NCBI GenBank assembly: GCA_030390025.1
Contig: CM059432.1
Span: forward strand, 12,710,001-12,774,000
Reading direction: 5' to 3'
DNA: 64,000 nucleotides
Source of the DNA: Squalus acanthias
Lineage: Eukaryota
Part shown: positions 18,198 to 44,805 of the stretch, piece after piece
How positions within the stretch are numbered: position 1 is the first letter of the stretch
Layout: every line of letters starts with the position of its first letter
Notes under the pieces: model-generated
The model's database searches: none
What the model was told of the DNA's origin: nothing
Seen by the model: only the letters and a program-made list of their open reading frames with translations
Made by a program: the position numbers and the translations under genes

Positions 18198-18680
18198 CCA
18201 GATTCACCAGACTGATACCTGGGATGGCAGGAATGACGTATGAAGAGAGATCGGGTCGATTGGGCTAGAGTTTAGAAGAATGAGAGGGAATCTCATTGAA
18301 ACTTATAAAATTCTAACAGGACTAGACAGACTAGATGCAGGAAGGATGTTCCCGATGGCAGGGGAGTCCAGAACCAGGGGTCACAGTCTAAGGATAAGGG
18401 GTAAGCCATTTAGGACTGAGATGAGGAGGAATTTCTTCACCCAGAGAGTGGTGAACCTGTGGAATTCTCTACCACAGAAGACAGTTGAGTCCAATTCATT
18501 AAATATATTCAAGAAGGAGTTAGATATATTTCTTAAGGCTAAGGGGATCAAGGGATATGGGGAGAAAGCAGGGACAGGGTACTGAATTTGGCTGATCAGC
18601 CATGATCGCATTGAATGGCGGAGCAGGCTCGAGGGGCCGAATGGCCTACTCCTGCTCCTATCTTCTATGTTTCTATGTTT
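18198..18680 (+). mobile_element. CR1 LINE 3' fragment
   Basis: MRGNLIETYK...NFFTQRVVNLWNSLP; (TTCTATGT)n tail. Confidence 0.95.
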
Positions 18681-18720
18681 CACTCAGCGGGTCAGGCAGC
18701 ATCTGCGGAGAGAGAAACAG

Positions 18721-18757
18721 AGTTAACGTTTCCGGTCGGTGACCTTTCGTCAGAACC
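18721..18757 (-). ncRNA. Degenerate minimal type I hammerhead ribozyme motif
   Basis: Minus strand GUU-CUGACGA-A-AGGUC-ACC-GACCG-GAAA-CG-UU-AAC; mismatch at the base of stem II. Confidence 0.55.
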
Positions 18758-20714
18758 GGCAAAGGTTAGAGATGTAAGGGGTTTTTAAGCAAGTGCAGAG
18801 GCAGGGAAAGACGGAGAGGAAAGAACAAAAGGGAAGGTCTGTGATGGGGTGGAAGGCAGGAGAGATTAAATGACAAAAGGGATGATGGTGCGAGGCAAAA
18901 GGGGGTGGTAATGGGACAAGTTAAGAAACAATGATTTCTTTGTGCTTTCAAAGAACTTAGCAGTGGGCTTTGCTTTGAAGCTGCTCTCTGCCAGGATCAG
19001 GGGATTGTGAAAAACAGGCAACAAAACTGGTTCATTTCAGCTGTTGACTTGTTACAACAGTTAGTTCCTCTTATACTGAGTGAGCTGATGAGTGGGTGGA
19101 GCTCTTCCACAGACACAATCTTTTTACTGAAGGCACATTAATTCATGTCTTCGCTGAAAAGTTAACAGCACATTTTGACTTCTCCGCTGCGAGTGTGCTC
19201 TTTGATCCATGTGTACTTACCTCACATGTTACTTCTGTTTTTTGAACGAAACTTTTAAATAAACATGTCAGTGACTCTCGTTGAACAACTGTTAGCCGTG
19301 TGGTTCATGTCTGACTCCCAAATGTGGTGGTGGAGCAGTGTACTAGGAGCCAAGGAGCTGAAGACAAACACATGGTCCTTCTCAATCTTTGCTGGAGTGT
19401 AACATTTACTTAAGATCAACTGAAGTGGAAGCCAGTTTAAGCTCTTTTTTAAAAAAAATGGAGCTGAATCCTGATAAAGGCTTATCTGGGTTGTCAAGAA
19501 ATGTTATGGTTGGATCAGGACTTGTAAAGACTGCATCAATCACTATGTAAAAAAAAACCAGCCTGCAGTGTTTGTTCCTCAGTTCGTTAATGAGGTGAAA
19601 TTAGTCGCCGTGATAATTGTAACAAACATATCATCACAGTTCATATGAACGTCTCCTGTGAGCTATTTTAAGGCATGTATTATCCCCATTTACTTTAATT
19701 GGGTTACCAAAGAACAATTCCTTATGAATGCAGTTAACTTGCTGCTTACAAACATCACTGAGGCCACTTTCACCCTCTCAGTCTTTCACCAGGCAACTTA
19801 ATCTGAATTAAAATATGAAGTGTTTTACTATTATTAAAGCAGAAACAAATAAATTGTCACTCTCGCAGTATTTGAGCAGGCTACGCATTGAAAGCACATT
19901 GAAAGCAGAATGATCCACTTAAGTGTGCGACTGGATCTACTGAGTAGGAGTGAATTGGGGGAAAAAAAAGATTTGAAAGCGTTAGAATGTAGTGCTCAGA
20001 TCAGAATCGTGCTTGTACAGCGCTTTAGTTGCCGGTGATTAATTAATTCACTTCTCAAAACAGCACTGATCCATCTGACCTCACACAATAATCCACCGCG
20101 CTAAATGTGCAAGTAGGAGGATCAGTGGCCTCCTTCATAACATGCCGAGCATGGCTATTGTAAAATTTCAAAGAGCTTATTGGGCCAGGGGTTTGTGATC
20201 CAGCCAGCTTGCCCTTTGCAAGGGCATAGGTCAAGTTAATTGGATCAATTTACTGTGACATTTAGAGTTGGCTAGGTCTTTTCATTACTGGCAGACATGA
20301 CTGTTGTAGACAGACACATAATTGCTTTGTGGTGCTTTGTTGGTACATCTAATGTTTATGGCTTTTCTGGGCTTCAAAGGGATACCTGTATTTTAAACCT
20401 TTTATCCCACTTTATAGCTTTACACCACATCCAAAAGATTCAAAGGCATGTTTCCTCTAGCAATTCTCAGCCCTCCTAGCTTAATGAAAGCTCATATAAG
20501 TTATCAAAGCGGTTTTTGCTCCAAAGGCTTTAGCTGTGAAAAGATGACAGAACGAGCTCCGTTGCTCCTCCCCAGAAGGTTGTGTAGTGGTTAAGGTAGT
20601 ACAAAACATTCCTGTTTATGGCCACCTTGTTAATAGGAATGTTCATTTAAAGGGACTGTGCTTTATTTTACTTTCATTTTCAATAATCGTTCTGTTTTAA
20701 TAAAAGTATTTGAT

Positions 20715-21153: not shown

Positions 21154-22879
21154 CCGTAGTGCAACCCCAAGAGTGCCCCAGTGCCACACATGAGCTGCCC
21201 TTCTTCATTTGTGAACCTTCACACTAATGAAGGTACGTTAATCGGTCGTGGGGTGCATCATAGTTGAACCCAATCCCCTCCTCCACTCGATAGCCACACA
21301 GACACATGCTTTCCAGCAAGGCTTGCTGGATAGCAATCAGAAGCAGAATCCCTGGCTGAATTTCCCCTCGTTTCCCCGGGAACATGAAGCTAATTCTAGT
21401 CCTTCTACCACCACCCCCATTATTGACTAACACGGTGCAAATCATGGACCCAACCTGGGGCTAAGTTCGCAGTCCTGCGGTCCGAATGCAGAGTCACACT
21501 CAGAGAGAGCGCGGGTCAGAGAATAGGGGCCCCAGTATTGTAGCCCCAGCTGCGAATTGTGCCCTTTGAGCACGGCTACCAGCTGAGAGAGGGATCAGTG
21601 AATTTACCCTCTGGGACTTGCCTGGTCTGTAAAGCTCAGTGACGCACCATAAGGTGCCCGCAAAGCCAATTGGGAGCAATTTCACGTCTTTGAATTTTTC
21701 TTAAATTATGACATGTTGAGGTAGAAATTGGTATGTGCGACACCCGTATTTTGGGTGTAAAGTGGGCACAAAGCATACCAATTTAGCGATGGGTTGGCCT
21801 GCACCAATCTGCGCAGGTGTTGGTCCCACTGCTAAATTCTTGGGGTCCACTTCTTAGGCGTCCCGGCTGATGCCTGAAACAAGCCCCTTGAATATGTTAA
21901 TTAGGGGCCTAACCACCAGTCTAGGGGCCTAGACTGCTGAAGGACCCCTGTGTAAAATGTGTTCACAGTGAGCGGGTCAGGATTTTTCCGCGGCCCCTGC
22001 GTAGGGTTGGCAGCTCTGGTTGGACGTATTCCTGGAGGTGTCATCACATGACCACCTGCCTCCAACCACCCCACCCCCCCGTCATTGGTCACCCAACGTG
22101 TCCATCCTCACAGCACCCTACCTTCCTCGGCCAATCGGAAAGCGATCAGACTCTTCGTTACCCGATTGGGCAATTTTTGACTGTCAGTCAAGCAGCCTTT
22201 TTTCCCATCTCAAATATTTTTATTACTAATAACCAAAGTGTTCAAAGAAATTTATCTCCCGGGTGTTGCTCACAGCAGTGTCGTAGAGATTTGTCTTTAA
22301 TTCCAGGAGTCTCCAGAACTAGCCACGCCGCTAGCCAAGCTGTTCCAGTACAGCTACAACACTGGCATCTACCCGACAATGTGGAAAACTGCCCAGGTAT
22401 GTCCTGTCCACAAAAAGCAGGACAAATTCGATCCGGCCAATTACCGCTCCGTCAGTCTATATTCAATCATCAGCAAAGTGATGGAAGGTGTTGTCGACAG
22501 TGCTATCAAGCGGCACTTACTCACTAATGGTCAGTTTGGGTTCTGCCAGGACCACTGGGCTCCAGACCTCATTACAGCCTTGGTCCAAACATGGACAAAA
22601 GCGCGGAGTTCCAGAGGTGAGGTGAGAGTGACTGCCTTTGACATCAAGGCAGCATTTGACCAAGTGTGGCATCAAGGGGCCCTAGCAAAATTGAAGTAAA
22701 TGGGAATCAGGAGAAAAACTCTCCACTGGCTAGAGTCATACCTAACACAAAGGAAGATGGTTGTGGTTGTTGGAGGCCAATCATCTCAGCCCCAGGACAT
22801 CGCTGCAGGAGTTCCTCAGGGCAGTGTCCTAGGCCCAACCATCTTCAGCTGCTTCATCATTGACCTTCCCTCCATCATA

Positions 22880-23269
22880 AGGTCAGAAGTGGGGATGTTC
22901 GCTGATGATTGCACAGTGTTCAGTTCCATTTGCAACTCCTCAATTAATGAAGCAGTCTATGCCCACATGCAGCAAGACATGGACGACATTCAGGCTTGGG
23001 CTGATAAGTAGCAAGTAACATTGCTACTCCGCCTGCATTTAGGGTTAGGGTTCACAACAACATGCAAGCCAGGAAGGTCAGAAGTGGGGATGTTCGCTGA
23101 TGATTGCACAGTGTTCAGTTCCATTTGCAACTCCTCAATTAATGAAGCAGTCTATGCCCACATGCAGCAAGACATGGACGACATTCAGGCTTGGGCTGAT
23201 AATTAGCAAGTAACATTGCTACTCCGCCTGCATTTAGGGTTAGGGTTCACAACAACATGCAAGCCAGGA
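22880..23269. repeat. 195-bp direct tandem duplication
   Basis: 22880-23074 and 23075-23269 differ at one visible position (GATAAGTAG/GATAATTAG). Confidence 0.9.
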
Positions 23270-24487
23270 TCCTGACCAACGGTTCCACCACAGACCCAAT
23301 TCATGTACGGACCGGGGTCAAGCAAGGCTGTGTCATCGCACCAACGCTCTTCTCGATCTTCCTTGCGGCAATGCTCCATCTCACCCTCAGTAAGCTCCCC
23401 GCTGGAGCGGAGCTAATTTACAGAACAAACGGGAAACTGTTCAACCTCCGTCGCCTCCAGTCCAGATCCAAGGTCGTCCCATCCTCTGTCGTCAAATTAC
23501 AGTATGCAGACGACGCTTGCGTCTGCGCACACTCAAAGGTCGAACTCCAAACCATCGTTAACACCTTCACCGAAGCGTACGAGAGCATGGGCCTTACACG
23601 AAACATCCGTAAGACAAAGGTCCTCTACCAACCTGCCCCCGCCACACAGTACTGCCCCCCAATTATCAAAATCCATGACAAGGCCTTGGACAATGTGGAC
23701 CACTTTCCATACCTCAGGAGCCTACTGTCAACAAGGGCAGACGTCGATAACGAAGTCCAACACCGCCTTCAGTGTGCCAGTGCAGCCTTCGGTTGCCTGA
23801 GGAAGAGAGTGTTTGAAGACCAGGACCTCAAACCCGACACCAAGCTCATGGTCTACAGAGCAGTAGTAATACCCGCCCTCCTGTATGCCTCAGAGACATG
23901 GACCATGTACAGCAGGCACCTCAAAGCACTGGAGAGGTACCACCAATGCTGCCTCCGCAAGATCCTGCAAATCCATTGGCAGGATAGGCGCACCAACGTC
24001 AGTATTCTCGCTCAGGCCAACATCCCCAGCATCGAAGCTTTGACCACGCTCGATCAGCTCCGATGGACAGGTCACATCGTCCGCATGCCCGATATGAGAC
24101 TCCCAAAACAAGCGCTCTACTCGGAGCTCCGACATGGCAAGAGAGCCCCAGGTGGGCAGAGGAAACGCTTCAAGGACATCCTCAAAGCCTCCTTGAAAAA
24201 GTGCAACATCCCCACCGACACCTGGGAATCCTTGGCCCAAGACCGCACAAAGTGGAGGAAGGCGCCGAATACCTCGAGTCTCTTCGCCGGGAGCAAGCGG
24301 AAGCCAAGTGCAAACAGCGGAAGGAGCGCACGTCAACCTAAGCACCCCACCCACCCGCCCCTTCAACCACCGTCTGCCCCACCTGTGACAGAGACTGTAG
24401 GTCCCGCATTGGACTCAACAGTCACATGAGAACTCATTTTTAATGTGGAAGCAATTCATCTTTGGTTCTGAGGGACTGCCTAAGAAG
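23218..24487 (+). mobile_element. RTE-clade LINE, 5'-truncated
   Basis: GVKQGCVIAPTLF, LQYADD, QLRWTGHIVRM; C2H2 finger CPTC...HMRTH after a frameshift; AAG tail; AACATT TSD (23212-23217, 24488-24493). Confidence 0.92.
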
Positions 24488-25957
24488 AACATTCACGCCG
24501 CACAAGTGCCAGGTAATGACTATCTCCAACAAGAGAGAGTCTAACCACCGCCCCTTGACATTCAACAGTATTACCATCACCGAATCCCCCATGATCAACA
24601 TCCTGGGGGGTCACCATTGACCAAAAACTTAACTGGAACTGCCTCATAAATACTGTGGCTACAAGAGCAGGTCAGAGGCTGGGTATTCTGTTGCAAGTGT
24701 CTCACCTTCTGACTCCCCAAAACCTTTCCACCATCTACAAGGCACAAGTCAGGAGTGTGAGGGAATATTCTCCACTTGCCTGGATGAGTGCAGCTCCAAC
24801 AACACTCAAGAAGCTCAACACCATCCAGGACAAAGCAGCCCGCTTGATTGGCACCCCATTCACCACCTTAAACATTCACTCCCTCCACCACCGGCGTACC
24901 GTGGCTGCAGTGTGTACCATCTACAAGATGCACTGCAGCAACTCTCCAAGGCTTCTTCGACAGCACTTCCCAAACCTGCAATCTCTACCACCTAGAAGGA
25001 CAAGGACAGCAGACGCATCGGAACACCACCACCTCCAAGTTCCCCTCCAAGTCACACACTATCCTGACTTGGAAGTATATCGCCGATCCTTCATCGTCGC
25101 TGGGTCAAAATCCTGGAACTCCCTCCCTAACAGCACTGTGGGAGTACCTTCACCACACGGACTGCAGCGGTTCAACAAGCGGCTCACCACCACTTTCTCG
25201 AGGGCAATTAGGGATGGGTAATAAATTCTGGCCTTGCCAGCAACGCCCACATCCCAGGAACGAATAAAAAAAAAAAAATCCTGGAGGGTTGGCATCTCTA
25301 CCCCTGCAACCGTCAACTAAAGGTAAGTTTGAATAAAATTTTTCCTTCCTGTGTCGTCAAGAGGAGCTGGAGCGCTCCCCCTGAATCCACAGTCCTGGCA
25401 ATCGCTGCCCCCTCCCCTGTTGCCCGCTAAATCCACCCCACCCCCCCCCCAACCTCCCGCTGCTGCCAGCGAGGCAGGTGGCCTGAAATTGTTGTTCCTG
25501 TACAGGCACAATCAGCACCAGCAGCTCACCACAGTTCTTCAGATAAGGCCCGAGGTCTAATTTCTATCGTTTCTAGGACCTATTGCTTCGGGCCAGACTC
25601 ATTTCTACCCCATTGTCATTTTATTTCCTCTGGTGGCATATTGCTTATGGAAGGCAAAGCGCTGGAAGTTATGTTACAGTTTTATAAAGCTCTGGTTAGA
25701 CCCCTTTTAGAGCACTTCATTCAGTTCTGAGCACCGCACCACAGGAAGGGGATATTGGCCATAGATGGGGTGCAGCGCAGATTCACCAGAATTATGCTAA
25801 AAGGGTTAAATATGAGGACAGATTACGTAGACTAGGCTTGTATTTCCTTGAATATAGAAAATTAAGGGGTGATCTAATTCAGATGATTAAAGGATTTGAT
25901 AGGGTAGATAGAGAGAAACTATTTCCTCTGGTGGGGGAGTTCAGAAGAAGGGGGCAT

Positions 25958-26196
25958 TGTGGCGGATCGTCACCTAAAACGGGCATAATCCACTCTTCCG
26001 TCTGTGGACAAATTTCCAGCACCTTCCCTTTAAGGCACCTTACCTTTAAGGCAGGAGGGGGCGGGGCCTCCGGTTTTACCCAGAGAATTCTGGGAGCTTT
26101 TCGGTTCTGCCATTTTGTGCCATGCTGTGATTAAAAAGTCTCTTGTTTAACACAAATGGATTTAGCCTTAATTTGTGTTTCGCGGCAGCCTCAACA
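25958..26196 (+). repeat. Gypsy 5' LTR (239 bp)
   Basis: TGTGGCGG...CCTCAACA; direct repeat of 29481-29703 plus a 16-bp internal duplication. Confidence 0.95.
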
Positions 26197-26197
26197 T

Positions 26198-26211
26198 TGG
26201 TGACCCCGACG
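26198..26211 (+). promoter_or_regulatory. Primer-binding site, tRNA-Trp
   Basis: TGGTGACCCCGACG is complementary to the 3' end of vertebrate tRNA-Trp (...CGUCGGGGUCACCA). Confidence 0.85.
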
Positions 26212-26236
26212 CTCAGAACGTATTCCGAGCACTGCA

Positions 26237-29200
26237 ATGGCGGACACGAACGCAGTTTCCGTGAAACTGCCGGAGTTTTGGGAAAACCAGCCCGAAGCCT
26301 GGTTTCTCCAAGCTGAATCTCGCTTCCGGCTGCAAAATATCACCACAGATGGGACGAAGTACGACTATCTCGTCACATCACTCGGTAGCGCCGCAGTTTC
26401 CAAGGTTTGGACAACGCTGCAGAACCCACCAGAGGAAGGCAAGTACGCACATCTCAGGACAGCGCTCCTTAAAAAATTTACGGCCTCGGCATATCAGCGA
26501 AACTGCCACTTCCTCGACCTTCCAGGCCTCAGTGATGCCTCACCGTCAGACCTCCTCTCCCACATGCTCTCCCTCACCGACGAGAGCCCACCCGGATCCC
26601 TCTTCCGCTCGCTGTTCATCCGCCAGCTCCCTCTCAGCATCCGCCCAGCGATCATGGCATCCGGCCTCACGAACCTGGAAGCCCTGGCCGATGAGGCCGA
26701 CAAGCTGCTGTCCGCTCACTCCAGCCGCGACGTCATTCCGGACCTGGCAGCCAATGCCTGGGCGCGCCCCTCACCAGCCAGCACGCGGCCACAAGGGCCT
26801 GTCACCAGGCCCACGGGGCCTTCACGCCCCACTAACCCGGGCCACTGTTACTACCATGCACGGTTCGGCGCCAGGGCACAATGGTGCACACCTCCCTGCT
26901 CTTTCAAGTCCGCCCCCGTTCCAGCCCCCGCGATGGCCATGGAACAGCTCGGCATCATCCGCCGCTCCAACAGTCCCTGGGCCTCCCCACTCCACATCGC
27001 CCCCAAACCAGGCGGAGGTTGGCGCCCCTGCGGGGATTACCGCCACCTCAACGACGCCACCACCCCTGATCGGTACCCCGTGCCGCACATTCAGGACTTC
27101 TCGGCTAGACTGGCCGGCCGCTCAGTCTTTTCCAAGGTCGACCTGGTGCGCGGCTACCACCAAGTCCCCGTCCACCCCGCGGACGTCCCCAAGACGGCCG
27201 TAATCACCCCCTTCGGCCTGTTCGAGTTCCTGCGGATGCCCTTCGGCCTCAAAAACGCGGCCCAGGCATTCCAACGGCTCATGGACTCGGTCCTTCGGGA
27301 CCTGAAGTTCCTGTTCGTCTACCTGGACGACATCCTGGTAGCCAGTTCCTCCAAGCAGGAACACCTCGAACACCTTCGCATCCTGTTCGGGCGCCTCAGC
27401 GACCACAGGCTCATCCTCAGCCCAGCCAAATGCCAGTTCGGCCTGGACAAGATCGACTTCCTCGGCCACCACATCACCCATGCTGGGGCCATTCCCCTGC
27501 CCACCAAGGTGCAGGCCGTCCAACAATTTCCCCGCCCCACCACCATCAAAGGCCTCCAGGAGTTCCTCGGGATGGTGAATTTCTATAACCGCTTCATCCC
27601 CAAAGCGGCGTCCCTCATGAGGCCCCTGTATGAAGCCCTCCGGGGCAGGAGCGGCAAGATGGCGGTCGAATGGACGGCAGATGCGTCCGCCACCTTCGAT
27701 TCCACCAAGACCGCGCTCGCCAATGCCACCCTGCTCGCGCACCCACGGCCCAATGCCAGGGTAGCGCTCACCATGGACGCCTCCGACCACGCGGTCGGCG
27801 CCATGTATGAGCAGTGGGTCGACGGCGCCTGGCAACCACTTGCCTTCTTCAGCCGCCAACTACGCCCCCCGGAGGTCAAGTACAGCACCCTCGACCGCCA
27901 GCTCCTCGCGCTGTTCCTGGCGGTCCGCCATTTCTGGTTTTTGCTTGAGGGCCACCCCTTCACTGCGTTTGTCGACCACAAGCCCCTGACATTCGCAATG
28001 GCAAAGACAACCGACCCCTGGTCTGCCAGTCGGCAGCGCCAGCTCACGGCAGTGTCCGAGTTCACCACGGACATCCAACACATCTCCGGCCGAGACAATG
28101 TGGTAGCCGACTGCCTCTCCCGCCCCGCCATCCACGCCGCACACCTAGCAGTCGACTACGCTCAACTCGCAGCAGACCAGATCACCGACCCTGATCTGCT
28201 CTCCGCACCCACCAACCTACCAGTGCTACGCCTGGCCGACGTCGCCTGTGGCCCGACCGCTGTCACGGTCAAGTGCGACATATCCCTATGTCAACCTCGG
28301 CCCGTCGTCCCAGCGTCCTGGCGCCGCCGGGTATTCGACATTCTCCACAACCTCTTCCACCCCGGCGCCCGCGCATCCATCAAATTGGTAGCCAACCGCT
28401 TCGTCTGGCGTGGCCTTCGCAAGGATGTGCGTACTTGGGCCAACTCCTGCCTAGCCTGCCAACGGGCCAAGGTACAGCAACACACGAAAGCACCCCTCGA
28501 GGAGTTTACCGTCCCCTCGCGGAGATTCGACCACATCCACGTGGACATCGTCGGGCCCCTGCCGCCATCGCAAGGCCACACGCACTTGCTGACCATCGTT
28601 GACCGCACCACACGCTGGCCTGAGGCAATTCCACTGACCTCTACCACCACCGCTGACATCGCCAGAGCCTTCGTCAGCACCTGGGTCGCACGTTTCGGCG
28701 TCCCCTCCGACATGTCGTCGGACAGAGGTCCGCAATTTACCTCTGAACTCTGGACCGCCGTCGCACGCAATCTCGGGGTGACCATTCACCGCACCACAAT
28801 GTACCACCCCCAAGCCAACGGACTGTGTGAGCGGTTCCACAGATCCTTGAAGGCATCTCTTCAAGCCAGCCTCCAAGACAGCGCCTGGTCCGACCGACTT
28901 CCATGGGTCCTCCTCGGCCTGCGCACCGCGGTTAAAGAAGACCTCCACGCATCGGCAGCAGAGCTCATGTACGGTCAGCCGCTGCGTGTAACCGGCGAGT
29001 TCCTGCCTACCGCCACGACACCCTGGTCAGCCGACCAGCAACGCCACGACTTCGCCTCACCGGCGCTGCAGTTCGCCCCGGTGCCCATTGCCCGACACGG
29101 CGAATCCCCCTCACACGTCCCACTAAGCCTGCACCAGGCACGGTTTGTTTTCGTCCGGCATGGCGCCCACCGCGGACCCCTTCAACCCCCGTACGACGGG

Positions 29201-29314
29201 CCCTACAGGCTGGGGACAAAATTTTCACCCTGCAAGTGGGCGACAGTACCGAAAAAGTGTCGGTTGACCGACTCAAGCCAGCACACTCGGAGCCCGGTGA
29301 GCAGGTCCCTGTAG
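26237..29314 (+). CDS. gag-pol: Gypsy Gag-RT-RNaseH-integrase polyprotein lacking protease (1025 aa)
   Basis: Gag AVSVKLPEFW and CYYH...C...C knuckle; RT YLDD; RH DAS; IN HHCC and D,D,E; GPY/F then a frameshift near 29210. Confidence 0.92.
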   Translation: MADTNAVSVKLPEFWENQPEAWFLQAESRFRLQNITTDGTKYDYLVTSLGSAAVSKVWTTLQNPPEEGKYAHLRTALLKKFTASAYQRNCHFLDLPGLSDASPSDLLSHMLSLTDESPPGSLFRSLFIRQLPLSIRPAIMASGLTNLEALADEADKLLSAHSSRDVIPDLAANAWARPSPASTRPQGPVTRPTGPSRPTNPGHCYYHARFGARAQWCTPPCSFKSAPVPAPAMAMEQLGIIRRSNSPWASPLHIAPKPGGGWRPCGDYRHLNDATTPDRYPVPHIQDFSARLAGRSVFSKVDLVRGYHQVPVHPADVPKTAVITPFGLFEFLRMPFGLKNAAQAFQRLMDSVLRDLKFLFVYLDDILVASSSKQEHLEHLRILFGRLSDHRLILSPAKCQFGLDKIDFLGHHITHAGAIPLPTKVQAVQQFPRPTTIKGLQEFLGMVNFYNRFIPKAASLMRPLYEALRGRSGKMAVEWTADASATFDSTKTALANATLLAHPRPNARVALTMDASDHAVGAMYEQWVDGAWQPLAFFSRQLRPPEVKYSTLDRQLLALFLAVRHFWFLLEGHPFTAFVDHKPLTFAMAKTTDPWSASRQRQLTAVSEFTTDIQHISGRDNVVADCLSRPAIHAAHLAVDYAQLAADQITDPDLLSAPTNLPVLRLADVACGPTAVTVKCDISLCQPRPVVPASWRRRVFDILHNLFHPGARASIKLVANRFVWRGLRKDVRTWANSCLACQRAKVQQHTKAPLEEFTVPSRRFDHIHVDIVGPLPPSQGHTHLLTIVDRTTRWPEAIPLTSTTTADIARAFVSTWVARFGVPSDMSSDRGPQFTSELWTAVARNLGVTIHRTTMYHPQANGLCERFHRSLKASLQASLQDSAWSDRLPWVLLGLRTAVKEDLHASAAELMYGQPLRVTGEFLPTATTPWSADQQRHDFASPALQFAPVPIARHGESPSHVPLSLHQARFVFVRHGAHRGPLQPPYDGPYRLGTKFSPCKWATVPKKCRLTDSSQHTRSPVSRSL

Positions 29315-29469: not shown

Positions 29470-29477
29470 GGGGGGAG
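29470..29477 (+). promoter_or_regulatory. Polypurine tract
   Basis: GGGGGGAG just upstream of the 3' LTR. Confidence 0.8.
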
Positions 29478-29480
29478 CTG

Positions 29481-29703
29481 TGTGGCGGATCGCCACCTAA
29501 AACGGGCATAATCCACTCTTCCGTCTATGGACAAATTTCCAGCACCTTCCCTTTAAGGCAGGAGGGGGCGGGGCCTCAGGTTTTACCCAGAGAAATCTGG
29601 GAGCTTTTTGGTTCTGCCATTTTGTGCCATGCTGTGATTAAAAAGTCTCTTGTTTAACACAAATGGATTCAGCCTTAATTCGTGTTTCGCGGCAGCCTCA
29701 ACA
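29481..29703 (+). repeat. Gypsy 3' LTR (223 bp)
   Basis: Direct repeat of the 5' LTR with 7 substitutions counted by eye. Confidence 0.95.
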
Positions 29704-32712: not shown

Positions 32713-33166
32713 GTCTATGATTGTTCATATAGCTTTAGTTATCGAACAGTACCATGTAATGTCTTTGTGTGTGTGTGGGGTAAAACACATCACACATTGG
32801 ATATTCCCCCTCACCACCACCCTGGATATTGCACTGCAGAGGTGAATTGGTCGGAAATGACTTTTTTAAAAATACATAGCAAATTGAAATCACTCAATGT
32901 TTTATCAATAATCGTAAGCACCCTTTCACTTTCGTAATCTTTTGAAATGTTCCAATGATTTTTAAGGTAGTTGCTTAGCAAATAAAATACTGGATGGAAA
33001 TGGGAAAGATTTGAATAGTTGAAAATGATTGTTAATGCTACAGAAGACACAAGTAAGGAGTGTGATACATAGATACATAGATACATAGAAGATAGGAGCA
33101 GGAGTAGGCCATCCGGCCCTTCGAGCCTGCTCCGCCATTTAATGAGATCATGGCTGATCCTCCAAT

Positions 33167-34164
33167 TCAGTATCCCGTTCCCGCCTTCTCTCCGTAACCC
33201 TTAACCCCTTTTGCCTGTAGAAATATATCTAATTCCCTCTTAAATATATTTAATGAGCTGGCGTACACTGCCCTCTGTGGCAATGAGTTCCACAGGTTCA
33301 CCACCCTCTGAGTGAAGAAATTCCCCCTCATTTCTGTCCTAAATGGTTTAGCCCTTATCCTTAAATTATGTCCTCTAGTTCTGTTCTCACCCGCCAAGGG
33401 AAACATTCCTTCTGCATCTAGTCTGTCTAGACCTGTCAGAATTTTATACACTTCTATGAGGTCCCCTCTCAATCTTCTAAACTCCAGTGTGTACATCCCT
33501 AAACTACATAGTCTCTCCTCATAGGTCAATCCCGCCATTCCTGGTATCAGCCTGGTGAATCGCCGCTGCACCCCCTCCATGGCAAGAACATCTTTCCTCA
33601 GATGAGGCGACCAAAACTGTACACAGTACTCGAGGTGTGGTCTCACCAGTGCCCTGTACAGCTGCAGCAAGGTATCCCTGTTCCTGTATTCCAACCCTTT
33701 TGCTATGAAGGCCAGCATACCGTTTGCCTTCTTGACCGCCTGTTGCACCTGCATGCTCGCCTTCAGTGACTGGTGTACAAGAACACCCAGGTCTCTCTGT
33801 ACTTCCCCCTCTCCCAATTTATTGCCATTTAAATAATAATTTGCCCTCCCGTTCCTGCACCCAAGGTGGATAACTTCGCACTTGTCCACATTATAGTGCA
33901 TCTGCCATTTATCCGCCCAATCACCCAGTCTGTCCAAATCGCTCTGGAGCTTCCTGGTCTCCTCCTCTGAGCCCCCCCCCCCACCTCCTAGTTTAGTGTC
34001 GTCTGCAAATTTGGAAATGCTGCATCCGACTCCCTGATCCAGGTCATTAATGTAAATTGTGAACAGCTGGGGACCCAGGACAGATCCCTGTGGTACCCCA
34101 CTTGTTACTGCCTGCCATTCAGAAAATGAGCCGTTTATTCCAACTCTCTGTTTTCTATCTGACA
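33167..34164 (-). CDS. CR1 ORF2 C-terminal half (RT)
   Basis: GVPQGSVLGP, KFADDTK, RPHLEYCVQFW; no stops. Confidence 0.9.
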
Positions 34165-34252
34165 TGATGCGGAGATGCCGGTGTTGGACTGGGGTGGACA
34201 AAATTGAGAGGTCGCACAACACCAGGTTATAGTCCAACAGTTTTATTTGAAA

Positions 34253-34295
34253 TCACAAGCTTTCGGAGCTATCGATTTGCTCCTTCCTCAGGTGA
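34253..34295 (-). ncRNA. Minimal type I hammerhead ribozyme (sense to the PLE)
   Basis: Exact reverse complement of 35125-35167. Confidence 0.75.
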
Positions 34296-34627
34296 AGTAA
34301 ATTAGATACAGAATCGCCAAAGCATATATAGATAGAAAACAAAGCATGTGTACTTTACAATTGCAGACCAATAAATTAAATCATCCTGACTATCTGCCGA
34401 GGTGTGATAAAGTTAATTAAGTCAGCCAGGAAGGTACCACATCAAAGACATAGCAAGATACAACTGAGACAATGAGGTGTAGTCACAGGGGTTCTAACGT
34501 GTCAAAAGCTGCCGTCTGTATGTAAAACGAAAAGCTTTAAAAAATGTTTACTTTTTTACTGGGAAAATTTTTACTTTTTTACTGGGAATCACATCTGTGA
34601 ACAAGCTAACGACGACTCGAGTCCGGA

Positions 34628-35095
34628 TCACGTCATGTATCGTGACATAAACCCAAGATCCCGATTGAGACCGTCTTCATGAGTGCGGAACTTGGCTATC
34701 AGTTTCTGCTCGATGATTTTGCGTTGTCGTGTGTTTCTAAGGTTGCCTTGGAGAACGCTTACCCGCAGATCCGAGGCTGAATGTCCTTGACTGCTGAAGT
34801 GTTCCCCGACTGGGAGGTAACAATCCTGCCTGGCGATTGTTGCGCGGTGCTCGTTCATACGTTGTCTCAGTGTCTGCATGGTCTCGCCGATGTACCATGC
34901 CGCGGTGCATTCTTTCCTGCAACGTATGAGGTAGACAACGTTGGCCGAGTCACATGAGTATGTACCATGTACCTGGTGGGTAGTGTCCTCACGTGTGATG
35001 GTGGTATCTGTGTTGATGATCTGGCATGTCTTGCAGAGTTTGCCATGGCAGGGTTGTGTGGTGTCGTGGTCGCTGTTATCCTGAAAGCTGGGTAA
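34628..35095 (-). CDS. PLE GIY-YIG endonuclease domain (partial ORF, RT missing)
   Basis: Hand-translated, stop-free: QPCHGKLCKTC...CDSANVVYLIRCRKECTAAWYIGETMQTLRQRMNEH...VGEHF...GLNRDLG. Confidence 0.9.
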   Translation of the reverse strand, partial: LPSFQDNSDHDTTQPCHGKLCKTCQIINTDTTITREDTTHQVHGTYSCDSANVVYLIRCRKECTAAWYIGETMQTLRQRMNEHRATIARQDCYLPVGEHFSSQGHSASDLRVSVLQGNLRNTRQRKIIEQKLIAKFRTHEDGLNRDLGFMSRYMT

Positions 35096-35124
35096 TTCTT
35101 TGGCGATTCTGTATCTAATTTACT

Positions 35125-35167
35125 TCACCTGAGGAAGGAGCAAATCGATAGCTCCGAAAGCTTGTGA
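35125..35167 (+). ncRNA. Minimal type I hammerhead ribozyme (inverted copy)
   Basis: UCAC-CUGAGGA-A-GGAGC(9-nt loop)GCUCC-GAAA-GC-UU-GUGA: stem I 4 bp, stem II 5 bp, palindromic stem III AAGCUU. Confidence 0.75.
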
Positions 35168-35216
35168 TTTCAAATAAAACTGTTGGACTATAACCTGGTG
35201 TTGTGCGACCTCTCAA

Positions 35217-37151
35217 TTCTATCTGACAGCCAGTTCTCTATCCACGTCAATACTTTCCCCTTTATCCCATGAGCTTCAATTTTCCATGCTAAACTTTTAT
35301 GTGGGACCTTGTCGAAGGCCTTTTGGAAGTCCAGGTACACCACATCTACTGGCTCTCCCCCATCTATTTTACCAGTTACTCCCTCAAAAAATTCCAATAG
35401 ATTAGTCAAGCACGATTTACCCTTTGTAAATCCATGTTGACTCTGTCCTATCCTGTCCCCATTTGCTAAGTGCTCCGCTATTTCATCCTTAATGATGGAC
35501 TCCAGCATTTTGCCCACAACTGATGTAAGGCTTACAGGTCTGTAATTACCTGCTTTTTCCCTACCCCCCTTTTTGAATAGTGGGGTAACGTTAGCTACCC
35601 TCCAATCCATGGGCACTGTTCCCGAGTCTAATGAATTCTGAAAAATCATACTTAGTGCATCCGCTATCTCTAGGGCCACCTCCTTCAGTACCCTAGGATG
35701 CATGTTATCAGGCCCTGGGGATTTGTCCGCCTTCAATCCCTTTAGCTTCCTTAACACCATATCCTTAGAGATATTGATTTGCGTCAGTTCCTCCTTTGCC
35801 AATGTCCCTATTTTTCCCGATATCCCAGGGAGGTTTTTTGTGTCTTCCTTCGTAAAGACTGACCCAAAGTATGCATTTAGTTGGTCTGCCATTTCCTTAT
35901 TTCCCGTTATATATTCCCCCGTATCTGACTGCAATGGACCAACTTTGGTTTTCACCAGTCTTTTCCTCTTGATATACTTATAGAAGCTTTTGGAGTTCGT
36001 TTTTATATTTTCCGCCAGCTTGCTTTCGTAAGCTATTTTGCCCCTCTTGATTAAGCCCTTTGTCCTCCTTTGCTCTATCTTAAACTGTTCCCAATCTTCC
36101 GCTCTGGCGCTTTTTTTGGCTATTTTATACGCCCTATCTTTGGATTTTATGCTGTCTCTAATTTCCCCTGTTATCCACGGTTGAGTCACCTTTTTAGATT
36201 TCCTTTTATGCCAGATTGGTATAAACAATTTTTGCAATTTTGTCATTCTATCTTTAAATGCTTGCCATTGTTTATCTACCTCCAGTCCTCCCAGGAACGT
36301 TGTCCAATCAGACCTACTCAGTTCCCGTCTAATGGCATCATAATTCCCCTTGTTTAAATTCAGGACCTTAGTCTCTGAGTCAATTTCTTTGCTCTCCATT
36401 TCGAGTGAGAAATCGATCATGTTATGATCGCTCTGACCCAAGGGTCCCCGTACAACAAGATTACTAATTAGTCCCTTCTCATTGCACAGTACCCAGTCCA
36501 ATATAGCCTGTTCCCGAGTTGGTTCCTCGACATATTGATCCAGATAACCATCCCTTAAACACTCAAGGAATTCCTCCTCCTCATTATTTTTACTGATTAG
36601 GCTAGTCCAATCTATATGTAAGTTAAAGTCACCTATGATGACAGCTGTGCTCTTATTGCACGCTTCTCTAATTTCCCTCGTGATGCCCTCCCCAACCTCT
36701 ATTTTACTATTTGGAGGCCTATATACCACTCCTATTAATGTTTTTCGCCCCTCGCTATTTCTTAGCTCCACCCATATAGATTCTGTATTAACTGAGTTAA
36801 TATCCTTCCTTTCAATTGCATTTATCCCCTCTTTTACCAGCAATGCTACCCCTCCTCCCTTTCTTTTTTGTCGATCCTTCCTAAATACTGAATACCCCTG
36901 TATGTTAAGCTCCCAGCCCTGCTCACCCTGCAACCATGTTTCCGTAATCCCAATTAGATCATAATTATTAACCTCTATTTCCACAGCTAATTCATCTACC
37001 TTGTTCCTGATGCTTCTCGCATTAAGGTATAAAACCCTCAGGCTTTTTTTATGCTCACATTTTTTATGAATTAGTTTGGCCCTTTGTTTTTTGTTCCTCA
37101 CCCTTTTACCATTTATTTCTGTCTGCCTTTCACTTTCCTCTATTTCACTAC
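35217..37151 (-). CDS. CR1 ORF2 N-terminal half (APE endonuclease and start of RT)
   Basis: YLNARS, ITETWL, YRPP, GDFN, SDHN, KSPGPD, YLDFQKAFDKVPH; no stops. Confidence 0.9.
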
Positions 37152-43587: not shown

Positions 43588-44805
43588 ACAACAGAAAGTG
43601 CTGGAAACACACAGCGGGTCAGGCAGCATCGAGGAGAGAGAAACAGAGTCAACGTTTCGGGATGAGCTCTTCGTCAGAACTGGAAAAGGTTAGGGAAGAG
43701 AGATTTTTAAGCAGGGGCACAGGAGGAGGGGAACCTCTCTCTCCTCGATGCTGCCTGACCTTTTTTTATTTGCATATGGGATCTGGGCGTCGCTGGCAAG
43801 GCCAGCATTTATTGCCCATCCCTAATTGCCCTTGAGAAGGTGGTGGTGAGCCACTTTCTTGAACCGCTGCAGTCCGTGTGGTGATGGTACTCCCACAGTG
43901 TTGTTAGGTAAGGAGTTCCAGGATTTTGACCCAGCGACGATGAAGGATCAGCGATATACTTCTAAGTCAGTATGGTGTGTGACTTGGAGGGGAACTTGGA
44001 GGTGCTGGTGTTCCCATGCGCTTGCTGCCCTTGTCCTTCTAGGTGGAAGAGGTCGCGGGTTTGGGAGGTGCTGCCGAAGAGGCCTTGGTGAGTTGCTGCA
44101 GTGCATCTTGTAGATGGTACGCACTGCAGTCACGGTGCGCCGGTGGTGGAGGGAGTGAATGTTTGAGGTGGTGGATGGGGTGCCAATCAAACAGGCTGCT
44201 TTGTCCTGGATGATATCGAGCTTCTTGAGTGTTGTTGGAGCTGCACTCATCCAGGCAAGTGGAGAGTATTCCATCACACTCCTTACTTCTGCCTTGTAGA
44301 TGGTGGAAAGGCTTTGGGGAGTCAGGAAGTGAGACTCTCGCCGCAGAATACCCAGCCTCTGACCTGCTCTTGTAGCCACAGTATTTATGTAGCAGTTCCA
44401 GTTAAGTTTCTGGTCAATGGTGACTCCCAGGATGTTGATGATGGGGGATTCGGCGATGATAATGCCGTTGAATGTCAAGGGGAGGTGGTTAGACTCTCGC
44501 TTGTTGGAGATAGTCATTGCCTGGCACTTCTGTGGCGCGAATGTTACCTGCCACTTATCAGCCAAGCCTGAACACTGTCCAGGTCTTGTTGCATGCGGGC
44601 ATGGACTGCTTCATTATCTGAGGAGTTTGAATGGCGCTGAACACTGGGCAGTCATCAGTGAACATCCCCATTTCTGACCTTATGTTGAAGGGAAGGTCAT
44701 TGATGAAGCAGCTGAAGATGGTCGGGCCTAGGACACTGCCCTGAGTGTTTCCAGCACTTTCTTTTGTTATTTCAGATTTCCAGCATCCGCAGTATTTTGC
44801 TATTG
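43588..44805. mobile_element. Penelope-like inverted pseudo-LTR remnant (43588-43760, 44742-44805) split by a LINE
   Basis: GGTCAGGCAGCATCGAGGAGAGAG vs CTCTCTCCTCGATGCTGCCTGACC inverted; degenerate hammerhead at ~43647-43681 (-). Confidence 0.65.
43761..44741 (-). mobile_element. Family-B LINE 3' fragment
   Basis: QGSVLGPTIFSCFINDLP through to poly(A). Confidence 0.9.

Follow-up and report, generated by a model that had tools for sequence, protein, structure and literature searches.

How does a short insertion come to carry the same ribozyme at both ends, once on each strand, and does the pair serve the locus? The question is raised by an insertion at 34153-35228 of a window of 64,000 nucleotides of Squalus acanthias (GCA_030390025.1, CM059432.1, 12,710,001-12,774,000, forward strand), within which all positions are counted. 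From its sequence, an original prediction had described a very young Penelope-like element (PLE) flanked by two inverted hammerhead ribozymes. The locus is read here, with a probability of roughly 0.8, as a 5′-truncated copy, dead on arrival, of a Neptune-type Penelope-like retrotransposon that is abundant in sharks. The anatomy, the target duplication, the terminus of the family, the 5′ truncation point and the conserved minimal hammerhead are demonstrated by the sequences compared. The two inverted ribozymes came about as a side effect of insertion, in the default layout of PLEs, and are not a regulatory design.

Structure of the insertion

The element lies in a minus-strand CR1-type long interspersed nuclear element (LINE; 33064-37151), in its reverse transcriptase (RT) region. 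Its two inverted arms are identical over exactly the predicted 121 bp (34202-34322 and 35098-35218), and the inverted repeat stretches to 129 bp at 98% identity when extended. The left arm, on the minus strand, is the element's own 3′ pseudo-long terminal repeat (pLTR); the right arm, on the plus strand, is an inverted pLTR copy that lacks both the tail and the TATA-like box. The insertion is enclosed by a direct repeat of 12 bp (34153-34164 and 35217-35228, plus strand), for which 10-12 bp had been proposed. The first two bases of this repeat also belong to the right arm and the last two also match the family terminus, so that 8 bases are unambiguous out of 12 duplicated. The empty site, with a single copy of the repeat, was found in contigs of runs X11 and X8; the X11 contig covers 33950-34164 with one different letter and a 3-base gap. 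These read-through contigs identify the 12-bp repeat as a true target-site duplication (TSD) and the host copy as little diverged.

A tail of 37-39 nt (34163-34201, minus strand) extends the left arm alone, which is a hallmark of PLEs. The original prediction had missed this one-sided tail as well as the host CR1. A short TSD is present and poly(A) is absent. Between the arms, the minus strand holds a 3′ untranslated region (UTR; 34323-34627) and a C-terminal fragment of an open reading frame (ORF; 34628-35097) that encodes a Cys linker and a GIY-YIG endonuclease (EN), without RT and without a start codon of its own. The 5′ truncation and the inversion meet at the junction 35097/35098. The 3′ UTR contains a 23-bp tandem duplication with one mismatch (34541-34586), where contig depth falls; most copies may be without it. 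No second copy of the family was found elsewhere in the 64-kb window.

An assembly that folded a repeat back on itself would also yield perfectly identical arms, and no contig among those listed spans the whole stretch. Such an artefact is hardly credible in view of the 12-bp duplication with its matching empty site, the unequal reach of the arms, and a depth of 25.5 past the inversion junction in X1. The depth there is 0 in X3, X11 and X8, which is not evidence of polymorphism, since 55% of X3 was read and absence cannot be shown by contigs.

The family and the age of the copy

At least half of the query words were present in 18 of the 24 runs listed, under five organism codes. All runs were compared as contigs, in which RNA ends are not visible; two metatranscriptome runs with shares of 0.10-0.11 were left out of the comparison. 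Contigs aligned to 33950-35125 in four runs numbered 25,328 (X1), 15,534, 3,271 and 2,544; these totals are not copy numbers, and the region takes in 215 bases of CR1. The PLE family is large, with many close copies: 9,267 of the 25,328 contigs of X1 are at least 99% alike. The element is left at 34163 by 95 contigs in X1, 91 in X3 and 20 in X11, which run into unrelated AT-rich flanks (agreement 0.36-0.44). The end of the tail is therefore a family-wide terminus, which includes the last two bases of the left TSD copy. Tail-less ends recur near the end of the right arm, where, among the joints listed, the element is entered at 34205 and 34206 by two others; one more joint has its entry at 34221. 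Beyond the contig data listed there are 1,253 more loose ends, 20 variant rows and 3 joints. A 4- to 30-fold depth peak over 34190-34269 was considered as an expression or cleavage product and discarded: contig depths are summed, DNA runs show the peak, and subfamilies share the stretch.

The absence of differences between the arms (0/121) bounds the divergence at 2.4% in total, or 1.2% per arm, and the open host ORF and the four intact CpG per arm suggest a value under about 1%. With 7e-10 mutations per site per generation, a rate given with a wide interval for another shark (PMC10587355), the 2.4% bound allows up to about 1.7e7 generations. The copy is thus very young in divergence, as proposed, but the bound establishes neither youth in years nor present activity.

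Relatives of the endonuclease

The stop-free minus-strand frame that had been noticed runs over 34628-35119, of which 34628-35097 is the element's genuine part. It matches the Pfam GIY-YIG domain with an E-value of 1.4e-4 and 22.5 bits, for a cut-off of 22.6. The Cys-rich linker, C-x4-C-x2-C (C16, C21 and C24), is invariant in all eight proteins aligned, and so are Y55, C59, C63, YIG 68-70, R77, H83, H99 and E129, which include the CCHH residues. A search for longer proteins gave 34 matches among 158 candidates, the best being shark proteins. The closest, P0001 from Heptranchias perlo (84% identity, 54 member sequences), contains both RT and EN; Scyliorhinus and Mustelus proteins come next at 82-73%, with a second RT and EN ORF at 82%. 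Within the window, tblastn recovers the EN part alone, the RT being missing from the truncated copy. Past 35097, five contigs (three from X8, two from X11) remain in frame and carry the sequence predicted from P0001, which fixes the 5′ truncation point.

A C-x(2-5)-C-x2-C linker between RT and EN is described as defining Neptune and as shared with Nematis (PMC8557442), and vertebrate PLEs are assigned to Neptune or Poseidon (10.64898/2026.07.22.740005). The linker and CCHH therefore point to Neptune or Nematis, and to Neptune as the vertebrate one of the two. Several traits of EN-bearing PLEs are found together: a pLTR in inverted orientation, GIY-YIG with CCHH, a one-sided tail and a short TSD. 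The identification as a PLE, and the view that an inverted 5′ pLTR is typical of truncated copies, agree with published PLE traits and with the shark RT and EN relatives. The copy is inverted, coding and single in the window, and so does not have the non-coding direct tandem units with hammerheads of non-LTR retrozymes.

Pieces of this endonuclease, at 68-84% identity, are included in the shark gene models P0008, P0012, P0015, P0017, P0024 and P0029. These are named cytochrome P450, NOXP20-like, septin 5a, XRCC5, PPP1R12A-like and IQCK, and represent exonised copies or annotation errors. In viral contigs, the protein scan confirmed none of 68 candidates, and a scan for the pLTR motif found no locus in either metagenome or viral contigs.

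Structure and conservation of the ribozymes

Each arm contains a minimal type I hammerhead, sense on the plus strand at 35125-35167 and on the minus strand at 34253-34295, with predicted cuts after 35163 and between 34257 and 34256. In the right arm, stem I (4 bp) is formed by 35125-35128 and 35164-35167, and is followed by the core CUGAGGA (35129-35135). An extra A at 35136, omitted from the otherwise accurate original prediction, separates the core from stem II (5 bp, 35137-35141 and 35151-35155). GAA (35156-35158), a 4-nt palindrome (35159-35162) and U as H17 (35163) complete the fold. The structural features of the minimal dimer-type hammerheads of PLEs are present: a CUGANGA core, the extra base, G10.1-C11.1, GAAA, UH, stems I and II, and a palindrome standing in for stem III. 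Among cleavage triplets, NUU is the weakest. The hammerhead model search advocated in the original prediction was negative, as none of the three Rfam covariance matches at E ≤ 5 was a hammerhead; such a miss is to be expected of a hammerhead that has no stem III. Taken by itself, the ribozyme has folding z-scores (-1.1 and -0.8) that are not significant.

Among 40 of the 60 variant rows, no substitution falls between 34210 and 34334, and indels are located in loop II. A sister subfamily (34 contigs in X1, 22 in X3) is altered at N7 and loop II only. The same ribozyme was found 284 nt past the endonuclease in a metagenome locus, L001, the protein of which is 57% identical. There, the core, the extra A, H17 and an identical palindrome are kept, N7 and stem II differ, and stem I shows a compensatory change from U-A to A-U. 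Loop II of the window copy (35142-35150) has its own 6-nt palindrome, and a predicted inactive dimer is more stable than the double hammerhead; in the sister subfamily loop II has 3 nt instead.

The dimer model of PLE hammerheads is described in a review (PMC6765202), and forms with an extra base at 9/10.1, palindromic positions 15.2-16.2 and no cleavage as monomers have been reported (PMC4209133). In intact tandem elements, the hammerhead could probably cleave only as a back-to-back dimer, and probably with the help of protein. Two related short repeats on the minus strand of the window, at about 43600-43715 and 18680-18790, have hammerhead-like cores (CUGACGA, GAAA and palindromic AACGUU) and are probably pLTR remnants of a second PLE family.

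Transcription and the ribozyme pair

The TATA-like box (34324-34330, minus strand) has its first T 39 nt upstream of C3 of the core, both in the window and in L001 (947 versus 986). The right arm starts two bases past the box, and therefore lacks it. Downstream of the ribozyme, a motif of 21 nt (34219-34239, minus strand) has 20 bases the same in L001, and may be a protein-binding or RT-start element. A stem from this motif into the tail, with its 3′ strand at 34182-34190 (minus strand), is predicted in both sequences (z of -2.5 in L001 and -0.8 in the window); since that strand belongs to the tail, the tail-less arm cannot form the stem. The first ATG after the box coincides with the last three bases of the tail (34165-34163). 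Because L001 keeps the ribozyme, the spacing of the TATA-like box and the downstream motif, the hammerhead probably stands at the head of the mRNA. In intact tandems, transcription would probably start just before stem I, with the hammerhead leading the 5′ UTR between the box and the first ATG. Rotifer pLTRs carry TATA and initiator elements (PMC3846280). The conserved order of TATA, hammerhead, stem-loop and ATG suggests that the job of the ribozyme may lie at the 5′ end of the mRNA. The AATAAA noticed after the ribozyme does exist (35173-35178), but it is absent from L001 and unsupported as a signal. As a poly(A) signal it was rejected for this lack of conservation, and since cleavage 10-30 nt beyond would remove both termini.

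It had been proposed that a transcript of either strand holds one sense ribozyme within a perfect 121-bp stem. This is so for read-through RNA, in which all 121 arm pairs are predicted to form on either strand (duplex of -227.6 kcal/mol). It does not apply to a transcript from the left-arm box, which would hold one ribozyme and no antisense arm; competition from double-stranded RNA (dsRNA) would thus be limited to read-through RNA. The two inverted ribozymes acting as a switch, in which cleavage as a trans-dimer competes with dsRNA and regulates the locus, is a very improbable interpretation. The read-through duplex would suit it, and the family is present in runs guessed to be RNA. Against it, the double hammerhead is predicted at -21.7 kcal/mol, compared with -24.2 for two monomers and -33.3 for the inactive loop II dimer, by a folding model that is blind to the contacts of the hammerhead core. 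Moreover, the antisense arm would be transcribed first in both directions, the host CR1 has neither ORF1 nor a 5′ end, no locus-specific transcript was seen in the contigs of the runs compared, and the layout is the PLE default. As modelled, the ribozyme has no role in the truncated copy, where it would be either buried in the 121-bp duplex or without a partner in cis.

Origin of the inverted arms

The arms face outward, and at either outer end 2 bases are shared with the TSD. Two-ended priming at two PLE start sites is a reasonably likely explanation, by a single event, of the inverted arms, the one-sided tail and the duplication. The endonuclease of the element would nick both strands of the CR1 copy 12 bp apart, and each nicked 3′ end would pair with 2 bases of the template RNA and prime reverse transcription. 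The top strand would start at the end of the tail and copy about 930 nt; the bottom strand would begin at the tail-less site, which lies 37-39 nt inward, and copy 121 nt. The inner cDNA ends would then be joined. As both cDNAs would traverse the predicted ribozyme cut, the template would be uncleaved RNA. In a Poseidon-clade element, both strands are reported to be cut and extended, with the tail delimited by two internal start sites; the template is mainly unprocessed RNA, and the ribozyme needs protein (PMC11167929).

Alternatively, the inverted arm may derive from self-priming or template switching of the nascent cDNA, folding back on itself without use of the second target strand. Palindromes at inverted junctions led to the proposal of such self-priming in A. 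vaga elements (PMC3846280). The arms here carry the same minority alleles, such as G at 34210 where about 70% of the X1 depth is A, so that one template or one subfamily served both; this is compatible with either mechanism. The inversion junction is not palindromic, as ORF position 35097 is joined to the pLTR position beside the TATA-like box, and the inverted arm ends, on its outer side, at the recurrent tail-less site. A fold-back origin is accordingly considered unlikely, while keeping some weight.

A number of points tell against the account of a conserved, Neptune-type element inserted by two-ended priming. Among the contigs listed, none bridges the left junction. The placement in Neptune is by linker motif and not by an RT tree. 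As to the conservation of the core across copies, the 40 variant rows listed contain no core substitution, but U replaces C3 in 15 X1 contigs and U4 is changed in one X8 contig, so that the core is not invariant. By the descriptor used, 15 of 16 metagenome loci (31-51% identity) have no hammerhead, and the promoter and start codon are drawn from two sequences. Priming at two ends is deduced from one finished insertion, with no intermediate seen; the in vitro data stem from the Poseidon clade; 2-base overlaps can occur by chance; and self-priming is what PMC3846280 proposes for inverted junctions.

No paper on PLE insertion by twin priming was found from titles and the beginnings of abstracts, which does not establish the novelty of the idea. 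The locus itself, one of very many truncated copies, is of small importance, and is of value as a clean specimen of how PLEs make inverted ends.

Target site and host element

The host CR1-type LINE is young and little diverged. Its halves on either side of the PLE carry endonuclease and RT domains, and the ORF2 halves are open over 643 and 332 codons. The copy is 5′-truncated, ends in an 8-bp microsatellite at its 3′ end, and starts just upstream of ORF2, where it abuts the 3′ piece of a second LINE in head-to-head orientation; it consequently lacks ORF1 and a 5′ end of its own, and is promoterless. The terminal ATG of the PLE tail (34165-34163, with A at -3) shares the reading frame of the 3′ half of the host ORF2 (332 codons). 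The left-arm promoter could therefore yield a ribozyme-headed RNA for a truncated RT; the chance of being in frame is 1/3, and no transcript was seen.

The target (34146-34160) matches a 15-mer in the 3′ UTR, on the promoter side of the element (34330-34344, minus strand), at 14 of 15 bases, and the match, an oddity of the locus, lies at a distance of 7 nt from the end of the inverted arm. Among 3,006 15-mers of the host LINE, the insertion site is the sole one to reach 14; in the rest of the window 4 of 62,922 do so, the one at the insertion site included. The likeness has a probability of about 1e-3 for a site named in advance, and was found post hoc. The target might have been picked for its likeness to the promoter-side sequence of the element, through a preference of the endonuclease or through pairing of RNA or cDNA with DNA. 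In favour of this, besides the uniqueness and position of the match, a PLE protein was reported to nick its own pLTR (PMC11167929). Such targeting is nevertheless doubtful: the single case was spotted afterwards among 21 inverted pairs, the flanks of other copies agree only at 0.36-0.44 with no fixed motif in common, G at 34337, carried by about 73% of the X1 depth, reduces the match to 13/15, and the matched bases are not retained at the inversion junction.

A broader proposal, equally tentative, is that the family picks some of its targets by self-likeness and primes both strands at two RNA start sites set by the conserved stem-loop. If true, the inversion and length of the arms, the tail on one side and tandem self-insertion would all follow from one rule. 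Should self-like targeting and priming at two ends hold family-wide, the thousands of shark copies would provide a statistical test of PLE insertion in a clade without biochemistry. A contig in X1 and X3 joins CR1-like sequence at 34160 to the tail-less pLTR end at 34205, and is perhaps a second insertion at most 4 bases from the same CR1 site.

Other features of the window

On the plus strand, an open frame of 1,036 codons (26204-29314) has gag-, RT-, RNase H- and integrase-like motifs as judged by eye. It is flanked by a direct repeat of 89% identity (25950-26196 and 29473-29703), and looks like a Gypsy-type LTR retrotransposon. A 196-bp direct tandem duplication at 99.5% identity (22879-23269), on the border of an RTE-like RT frame (23203-24429), is a recent event or an assembly slip.

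Comparison with known systems

The inverted-pLTR layout is already published (Arkhipova 2013, Craig 2021), and so are the ribozymes (Cervera 2014). General PLE traits include an inverted pLTR, a tail and a TSD of roughly 10 bp (PMC8557442, Fig. 2 legend). The closest parallel is with Adineta Pen2, for which an inverted pLTR, a one-sided 31-bp tail, a TSD of 9-10 bp and a TATA in the pLTR are described (PMC3846280). Like Pen2/Pen2a of Adineta vaga, the copy has a 5′-truncated body with an adjacent inverted pLTR shorter than the direct one, a tail of 30-40 bp on one side, a TSD close to 10 bp, a TATA-like box and a non-LTR target. It differs by its shark host, its Neptune/Nematis-type Cys linker and its non-palindromic junction.

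With the Neptune clade, it shares the C-x(2-5)-C-x2-C linker, GIY-YIG with CCHH, a vertebrate host and a hammerhead in the pLTR. It departs from that clade in that this copy has no RT and its target is CR1 coding sequence rather than a microsatellite.

The ribozyme resembles the minimal hammerheads of PMC4209133, which are type I with a 4-bp stem I, an extra base at 9-10.1, G10.1-C11.1, palindromic 15.2-16.2 and no loop III; that article already records hammerheads paired on opposite strands at a distance of a few hundred bases. It differs by a 5-bp stem II, a 9-nt loop with its own palindrome and U as H17, and its cleavage is predicted. No shark example was found among the hammerheads in the accessible part of that article.

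PAc, a Poseidon element from Anolis carolinensis (PMC11167929), likewise has a tail bounded by two termini, AT-rich targets and an uncleaved RNA template. It belongs to another clade, and its ORF starts in stem II, whereas the first ATG here is at the end of the tail. Finally, animal non-LTR retrozymes (10.64898/2026.07.22.740005) also have a type I hammerhead derived from PLE pLTRs; they are non-coding direct tandems, whereas the copy in Squalus acanthias is inverted and carries an endonuclease ORF.

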